NCBI GenBank assembly: GCA_964016885.1
Contig: OZ024743.1
Location: 292,020,001-292,084,000, forward strand
Length of the DNA: 64,000 nt
Direction: 5' to 3'
Origin: Eledone cirrhosa
Taxonomy: Eukaryota
Below, piece by piece: positions 40,839 to 41,208 of the stretch (position 1 is the first letter of the stretch; the number at the start of each line of letters is the position of its first letter). A program made the position numbers and the translations under genes. The notes under the pieces were generated by a model, which worked only from the letters and a program-made list of their open reading frames with translations, was not told the origin of the DNA and searched no databases.

Positions 40839-41208
40839 TATGAAGAGAGAAGAAACATTTAGATATAATTAGTAATAAAATGTATCATACCTAAACTGCT
40901 CCTAAATTCCTCGACTACGTAGTTTCGTGGCATAAACAAAAACAATATATCATAAAGATATAGAGGAATTTAGGAGCAGTTTAGGTATGATACATTTTAT
41001 TACTAATTATATCTAAATGTTTCTTCTCTCTTCATAATGTATTTTTAACTCTGATACTGGTTCAGTCTAGTTCAACTGAATTGGTCTGTCCCAGTCATTC
41101 ATTGAGCAACATCGGTGAAGTTGGCACCCTTAACTCACAGTTGGGTGCGGATGCATTCATGTATATATGTGTGTGTCCGCATGTATCTGTGTGTTTCTAA
41201 ATATATTG

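Follow-up and report, generated by a model that had tools for sequence, protein, structure and literature searches.

A short two-armed insertion at positions 40833-41210 of a 64,000-nucleotide stretch of Eledone cirrhosa DNA (the window, that is, the whole stretch that was analyzed) raises the question of whether a self-cleaving RNA has left its mark in the genome. In this insertion, here called copy A of the repeat family R, a sense arm meets an inverted arm head to head near the base at which a hammerhead ribozyme is predicted to cut. The first-pass annotation had taken this joint as the trace of a reverse transcript that ran off the 5' end of a cleaved RNA and then switched template.

Copy A (40833-41212) was aligned to the long arm of copy B, the other family R copy considered here (Table 1). 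The sense alignment sets in at 40963, offset +1, the first base after GUC (offsets are counted from the predicted cut), in agreement with the start that the annotation had called precise; the antisense alignment, however, extends over 40833-40965, so that both arms claim the three bases GAG (sense +1 to +3, inverted -51 to -49) and the start is precise only when GAG is credited in full to the sense arm. The reported microhomology was thus confirmed, while the breakpoint itself may lie anywhere from +1 to +4 because of this overlap, which begins at +1 and is located entirely 3' of the cut. Of the inverted arm, 50 nt (53 including the overlap) derive from the upstream side of the cut; the arm ends at -51, before the TTGATAA core (about -78 to -72), and of the hammerhead copy A retains the 3' half alone. 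At +14 the two arms of copy A carry a G and those of copy B an A, and in the contigs of public run X2 this G is not listed among the variants reaching 1%; the signal of a variant shared within copy A amounts to this one base. Older copies gave a mixed picture, with 2/4, 3/7, 7/3, and 0/0 shared/different variants. A 56-nt inverted repeat (40437-40492 and 41247-41302, 98% alike) encloses copy A together with a hairpin at 40530-40736, and these two are nested insertions into (TA)n at the center of an older hairpin.

Table 1. Features of the two family R copies and of two comparison insertions (positions in the window; offsets relative to the predicted cut)
Feature	Positions	Strand	Remarks
(TA)n/(CA)n microsatellite, left flank of copy A	40736..40835		likely target
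Copy A inverted arm	40833..40965	-	X (+80) across the cut to offset -51
Predicted cut site within copy A inverted arm	between 40913 and 40912	-	
Unpaired hairpin loop of copy A, 50 nt	40913..40962	-	upstream-of-cut sequence, inverted arm only
GAG microhomology, copy A	40963..40965	+	sense +1..+3 / inverted -51..-49
Copy A sense arm	40963..41042	+	+1..+80; 80/80 identical to inverted arm
Copy A tail extension	41043..41210	+	+81 to about +240; one arm only
(TA)n microsatellite, right flank of copy A	41211..41245		
Copy B tail-bearing sense arm	61095..61555	-	-221..+240
Complete minimal type I hammerhead fold (predicted), copy B sense arm	61330..61417	-	first base after predicted cut 61334
Copy B inverted arm	61560..61815	+	-176..+80; 255/256 identical to other arm
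Complete hammerhead fold (predicted), copy B inverted arm	61653..61740	+	GUC, predicted cut before 61736
Comparison insertion, other hammerhead family	35304..35603	+	tail arm -4..+1; 4-nt overlap CATA
Comparison insertion, other family	47037..47403	-	tail arm -14..-8 inside hammerhead

Copy B (61081-61815, minus strand) had been described as a full copy. It does carry the motif, the letters at 61733-61747 reading, as annotated, GTC followed across the predicted cut by GAGGAATTTAGG, but it is itself a second two-arm insertion, with a joint at -176/-221, and the motif is located in its inverted arm; the equivalent site in the tail-bearing arm lies at 61334 on the minus strand. The stretch 61511-61555 was considered as inserted or inverted filler and rejected as such, since public contigs show it as a continuation of the sense arm, namely, its own upstream part. 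The stretch 62050-62255 is one which we take to resemble a tRNA-derived SINE; ARAGORN found no tRNA in the 64-kb window.

In family R, a motif scan recovered two type I hammerhead patterns, one at 61736 (plus strand) and one at 61334 (minus strand). The predicted fold comprises a 5-bp stem I, the core TTGATAA (a U3-A8 variant), a stem II of 6 bp with a bulge and a long loop, GAAA, and a stem III with one pair beyond A15-U16 around the palindrome TACGTA, followed by GUC; the 3' strand of stem I is formed by exactly +1 to +5. Motif scan and constrained folding together found the core boxes (C/U)UGAN(G/A)A and GAAA, the NUH triplet, helices I and II, and the palindromic helix III of a minimal type I hammerhead. 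Imposing this fold costs about 1 kcal/mol (-21.5 versus -22.6 kcal/mol for the free fold), overall fold stability equals that of shuffled sequences (z 0.08), and self-pairing of the helix III palindrome yields -12.9 kcal/mol, a helix that could dimerize according to this calculation. No Rfam hammerhead model matched the window at the gathering score, and the only Rfam match in 61600-61800 was a chance one to a miRNA (E 1.9). Hammerhead cores with U3-A8 probably stay active. The family R motif fits the minimal hammerheads of Penelope elements, and cleavage after GUC, as a dimer, is predicted from it.

Family R itself is likely a non-autonomous Penelope-like element of known architecture. In both copies an inverted 5'-truncated copy adjoins a direct one, the inverted arms share one start point (X, at +80 from the cut), a tail of about 160 nt is present on one arm only and ends near +240, and (TA)n flanks the insertion. 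Besides microsatellite read-throughs, copies A and B contain no ORF of at least 90 amino acids, and neither harbors the ORF with a reverse transcriptase (RT) of the telomerase-like type and a GIY-YIG endonuclease that marks an autonomous EN+ Penelope element. The single RT match among the six proteins scanned belongs to a separate, broken LINE-like fragment (31790-33612, minus strand) with endonuclease (PF14529) and RT (PF00078) matches, which, judged by its domain set, is not of the Penelope type. Copy A is best described as a short, protein-free two-armed insertion likely made by a Penelope-type RT. A 591-nt head-to-tail unit, in tandem or as a circle, was obtained from one self-closing 621-nt contig of public run X1, and the 64-kb window contains no family R tandem. 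Elsewhere in the window, broken Helitron-like pieces on the minus strand (4265-5868 and 9172-9579) match Helitron_like_N (E 4e-14) and PIF1 helicase (E 9e-29).

The accessible portions of published reports place these features among known systems. EN+ Penelope-like elements (PLEs) and their pseudo-LTR derivatives likewise join a 5'-truncated copy to an adjacent inverted 5' copy and show an overlap or palindrome at the inverted junction (PMC8557442, PMC3846280); they also share with family R a tail at one end only, (TA)n targets (PMC8557442), and a hammerhead near the 3' end. Family R differs from them by the lack of an RT/GIY-YIG ORF and by its tail of about 160 nt instead of 30-40 bp. The minimal type I hammerheads of metazoan PLEs resemble that of family R in their 5-bp helix I, their long bulged helix II opening with G-C, and their tiny palindromic helix III, which should need a dimer; the same report, in its accessible part, describes the U3-A8 core covariation in Schistosoma (about 1,300 hits) and opposite-strand hammerhead pairs 100-700 bp apart (PMC4209133). 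Unlike in these, loop II of family R is very long and contains a hairpin, and there is no Rfam match. The Poseidon element PAc of Anolis is similar in its two internal RT starts that define the tail, its AT-rich targets, and the extension of both target strands, but its hammerhead is dispensable (PMC11167929). Animal non-LTR retrozymes, proposed to be non-autonomous PLE derivatives, are likewise built from a unit that lacks coding sequence, is arranged head to tail, and bears a single type I hammerhead (PMC7229834, 10.64898/2026.07.22.740005); their unit measures about 170-400 nt, a range outside which the 591 nt of family R fall (PMC7229834), and the family R copies of the window are truncated two-arm insertions rather than tandems. 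The element, its layout, and the U3-A8 core variant all belong to known kinds.

The window has a very high density of hammerhead patterns for 64 kb. Besides family R it contains ten further families of minimal type I hammerhead patterns, none matched by Rfam, most with a palindromic helix III and mostly within TA-flanked hairpin insertions (sites at 3730, 4164, 6385, 7064/7206, 12078/12420, 13611, 30198, 35349, 36238, 43591, 46681/47343, 47657/48236, 48656, and 58429, and in 40530-40736 and 59574-59708). One of these families has a circularly permuted unit (3560-4204, 36086-36620, 38813-39008, 45305-45843, and 57926-58620) and includes several retrozyme-like copies that exceed one unit or are partial tandems. 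The minus-strand stretch 46507-47403 displays a textbook Penelope layout, with an inverted copy, a partial tandem (-14 to +175), and a full 530-nt unit; it crosses two cut sites, and its template thus exceeded one unit. A short duplicated snap-back at 12238-12260, as from repeated self-priming, occupies the center of the palindrome 12023-12475. Three 5' ends, at 4204 (-40), 40668 (-45), and 59707 (-45 or beyond), coincide with or closely neighbor the 5' strand of stem I, a hint of stops linked to structure. Hairpin insertions in which the scan recognized no hammerhead are found at 2168-2276, 11395-11767, 13747-14156, 24136-24832, 30725-30873, 36868-37830, 37872-38640, and 62193-62430.

With 11 hammerhead families in the 64-kb window, 11 two-arm insertions could be scored for the position of their junctions. 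Every one of the 11 inverted arms crosses its own predicted cut. The tail arms start at about -146, -71, -171, -186 or beyond, -4 to +1, and +28 in six of them and, in the other five, at -45, +1 to +4 (copy A), -14 to -8, -196 or further upstream (in an insertion where no tail was visible), and -221, the junction interval thus covering the cut (+1) in 2/11. A rough uniform null, with ranges set by hand and X entered as +83 instead of +80, gives a chance of 13-23% for at least one junction at the cut and of 0.8-2.6% for at least two; on the same rough basis, one cut-covering junction among the ten insertions besides copy A has a chance of 12-21%. Within family R, one of the two copies has its junction at the cut. 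None of the 10 single-arm or tandem copies in the window starts at +1, a count that single-arm starts in families with no second window copy would escape. The 11 insertions do not include a complex one at 57926-58620, whose inverted arm begins on the upstream side of the cut and whose sense arm, starting beyond -221, gives no hit at the cut, nor the local inverted repeats at 2168, 11395, 11654, 13747, 24136, 30725, 36868, 37872, and 62193, where no hammerhead was recognized.

Near-perfect fold-back centers at -45 to -171 were found in 4 of the 11 insertions. Where the tail arm is clearly shorter than its partner, in four insertions, the junction falls each time within -14 to +29 of the cut, a clustering partly explained by X being only 20-150 nt from the cut. 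Copies longer than one unit occur at 46507-47225 and 45305-45843, and the two-arm-plus-tail layout recurs in several families. In the geometry of copy A, 543 possible joints show a microhomology of 3 nt or more, of which 19 (3.5%) cover +1 and 6 (1.1%) have the onset of the overlap exactly at +1; given the end of the inverted arm, only two GAG sites were open to it, +1 and +12. The match at +1 is improbable when one junction is considered by itself, yet no longer so when a window offers 11 of them.

The second cut-covering junction, at 35469, has its CATA overlap, accompanied by a further partial match, upstream of the cut. Since a cut RNA could not supply an overlap on that side, this joint fits fold-back better than run-off, although a blunt join is possible if the overlap arose by chance. 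We therefore rejected it as a clean replicate of copy A, all the more so since the end of its inverted arm was judged against a copy only 83% alike. At the joint of the insertion 47037-47403, a 6-nt exact overlap lies within a 10/11 inverted match.

Four of 24 public sequencing runs were compared with family R, namely, two raw Hi-C runs, which yielded 0 and 3 matching reads, and the contig sets X1 and X2. Run X2 gave 1,048 aligned contigs, 11 of which end in TA at X, confirming this internal start site. No loose end at 61331-61334 was present among the 6 of its 60 loose ends that were listed, and there was no drop in depth across the cut (423k versus 482k in adjacent bins, these depths not being copy numbers). 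The contig sets drop rare variants, strand-change joints were listed in neither of them, and the joint of copy A was not among the joints listed for X1 or X2. For 61095-61559, the sole matching record of run X1 was the self-closing 621-nt contig, at a depth of 7.8, which, should the run be RNA, may represent a transcript in circular or multimeric form. In exact-pattern scans, the family R core had 0 matches among contigs of metagenomes, viruses, and prokaryotes, and the pattern of a commoner family had 0 among those of metagenomes.

How, then, did the joint of copy A arise? A single RNA whose first base follows the cut, the template proposed in the annotation, cannot supply the 50-53 nt from upstream of the cut that are present in the inverted arm, and run-off on one cleaved RNA followed by fold-back of the same cDNA was rejected for the same lack; the upstream bases require a read-through template in the same event. 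What stands of a run-off defined by cleavage is the hammerhead cut predicted at that very base, the insertion of a Penelope type made by reverse transcription, and an overlap wholly 3' of the cut, as annealing of the end of a run-off cDNA would give. A version with two templates is a serious though less probable candidate. Here, a tail-primed cDNA would have ended at +1 on hammerhead-cut RNA, and its 3' end, CTC, would have paired with the 3' GAG of another cDNA that had been primed at X and copied a unit left uncut, for instance the next one in a partly cleaved multimer of common source. Such an origin would account for the onset of the overlap exactly at +1, and the joint of the second family (35469-35473) is compatible with a blunt join at its cut. 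The small cost of the predicted fold and a helix III that could dimerize are in line with it, as is the head-to-tail unit in one contig, which makes dimers possible. A precedent is the HDV-like ribozyme of Drosophila R2, whose cut site coincides with the 5' junctions in the genome, variable junctions there showing microhomologies due to chance (PMC3774820, accessible part); R2 nevertheless has another ribozyme and belongs to another element class, and the cut defines its 5' end, whereas the hammerhead copies of the window mostly read through the cut. Against the two-template version, the templates would have to be in different states and yet share a rare variant, the replicate amounts to 1/10 once the discovery case is set aside, with its overlap on the side absent from cut RNA, and the X2 contigs, a weak test, showed no end at the cut among the six listed and no depth step across it. 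Furthermore, the accessible parts of published work describe low in vitro cleavage by minimal Penelope hammerheads, with dimers needed (PMC4209133), and no RNA-seq read ending at the cut of the anole element (PMC11167929).

The same position at the hammerhead could also matter if no cleavage took place. The 3' strand of stem I being exactly +1 to +5, an RT copying intact RNA might have paused there and left a short cDNA that was joined by microhomology, and other 5' ends do lie at hammerhead borders, at -14 to -8 (GAAA) and at -40 and -45 (5' strand of stem I). In a single copy, a pause of this kind would be indistinguishable from run-off. We nevertheless regard such a stall as unlikely, since stem I has just 5 bp and the whole ribozyme was read through in most copies. 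That a chimeric fold-back read created the junction during library preparation or assembly is very improbable: long palindromes are hard to assemble and the joint was listed in neither contig set, but boundary X is identical in both copies and in the 11 X2 contigs, and the two-arm-plus-tail layout both recurs in the window and matches the layout published for Penelope-like elements.

The likeliest cause of the joint, to which we assign a probability of about 0.5, is that read-through DNA spanning the predicted cut paired with itself through the 3-base GAG/CTC match; this figure includes a later microhomology deletion of the center of a longer palindrome, which leaves the same scar. In such a scenario, a Penelope-type protein acting in trans would nick both strands of the TA target, and one strand would prime at X and copy uncut, religated, or multimeric RNA up to -51. 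The GAG 3' end of this antisense cDNA would then fold onto CTC at +3 to +1 and copy the cDNA back toward X, after which the new sense stretch would anneal to a second cDNA, primed at the end of the tail. An arm copied from the other arm directly gives the G at +14 in both, while two separate cDNAs would need a common source. Self-priming is further favored by other joints of this geometry that coincide with short inverted matches, either at some distance from the cut or on its upstream side (-14 to -8, -4 to +1, and +28), and by the 11/11 inverted arms that cross the cut, the copies longer than one unit, the four near-perfect fold-back centers, the joint of copy B at -176/-221, and the 0/10 single-arm or tandem copies starting at +1. 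On this reading the coincidence with the cut site is fortuitous, and both the exact onset at +1 (1.1%) and the 2/11 intervals at the cut (0.8-2.6%) weigh against it, as do the four junctions with shorter tail arms close to the cut and the mixed record of shared variants in older copies. In the accessible parts of the literature, self-priming on an antisense template has been proposed for inverted Penelope junctions (PMC3846280), and, for the anole element, uncut RNA is described as the main in vitro substrate and both target strands as extended from two internal start sites bounding the tail (PMC11167929). Judged from these sequence comparisons, the junction of copy A hints only weakly at any cutting by the ribozyme in the animal; one post hoc junction cannot show ribozyme activity, and together with one ambiguous replicate it does not establish an excess of junctions at the cut.

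The element and its layout are thus ordinary, and the single junction of copy A is only a lead. What is at stake is whether Penelope hammerheads cut in vivo and, if so, at which step, the sole reconstituted element having had no need of cleavage according to the accessible part of its description (PMC11167929). A full-text literature search, with most subscription papers outside its reach, found no report of an excess of junctions at the cut, and this genome, with so many hammerhead families in one short window, is a good test bed for such an excess, from which the genome itself would directly attest cleavage in vivo in the course of insertion. It is conceivable, though we consider it less likely than not, that a minority of the Penelope-type insertions of this genome record germ line hammerhead cleavage as run-off cDNA joined head to head to cDNA of an uncut unit. 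If true, junction maps would provide a genome-wide, assay-free readout of the minimal hammerheads that cut in vivo, U3-A8 variants included, and a two-cDNA origin of the Penelope inverted arm would follow.
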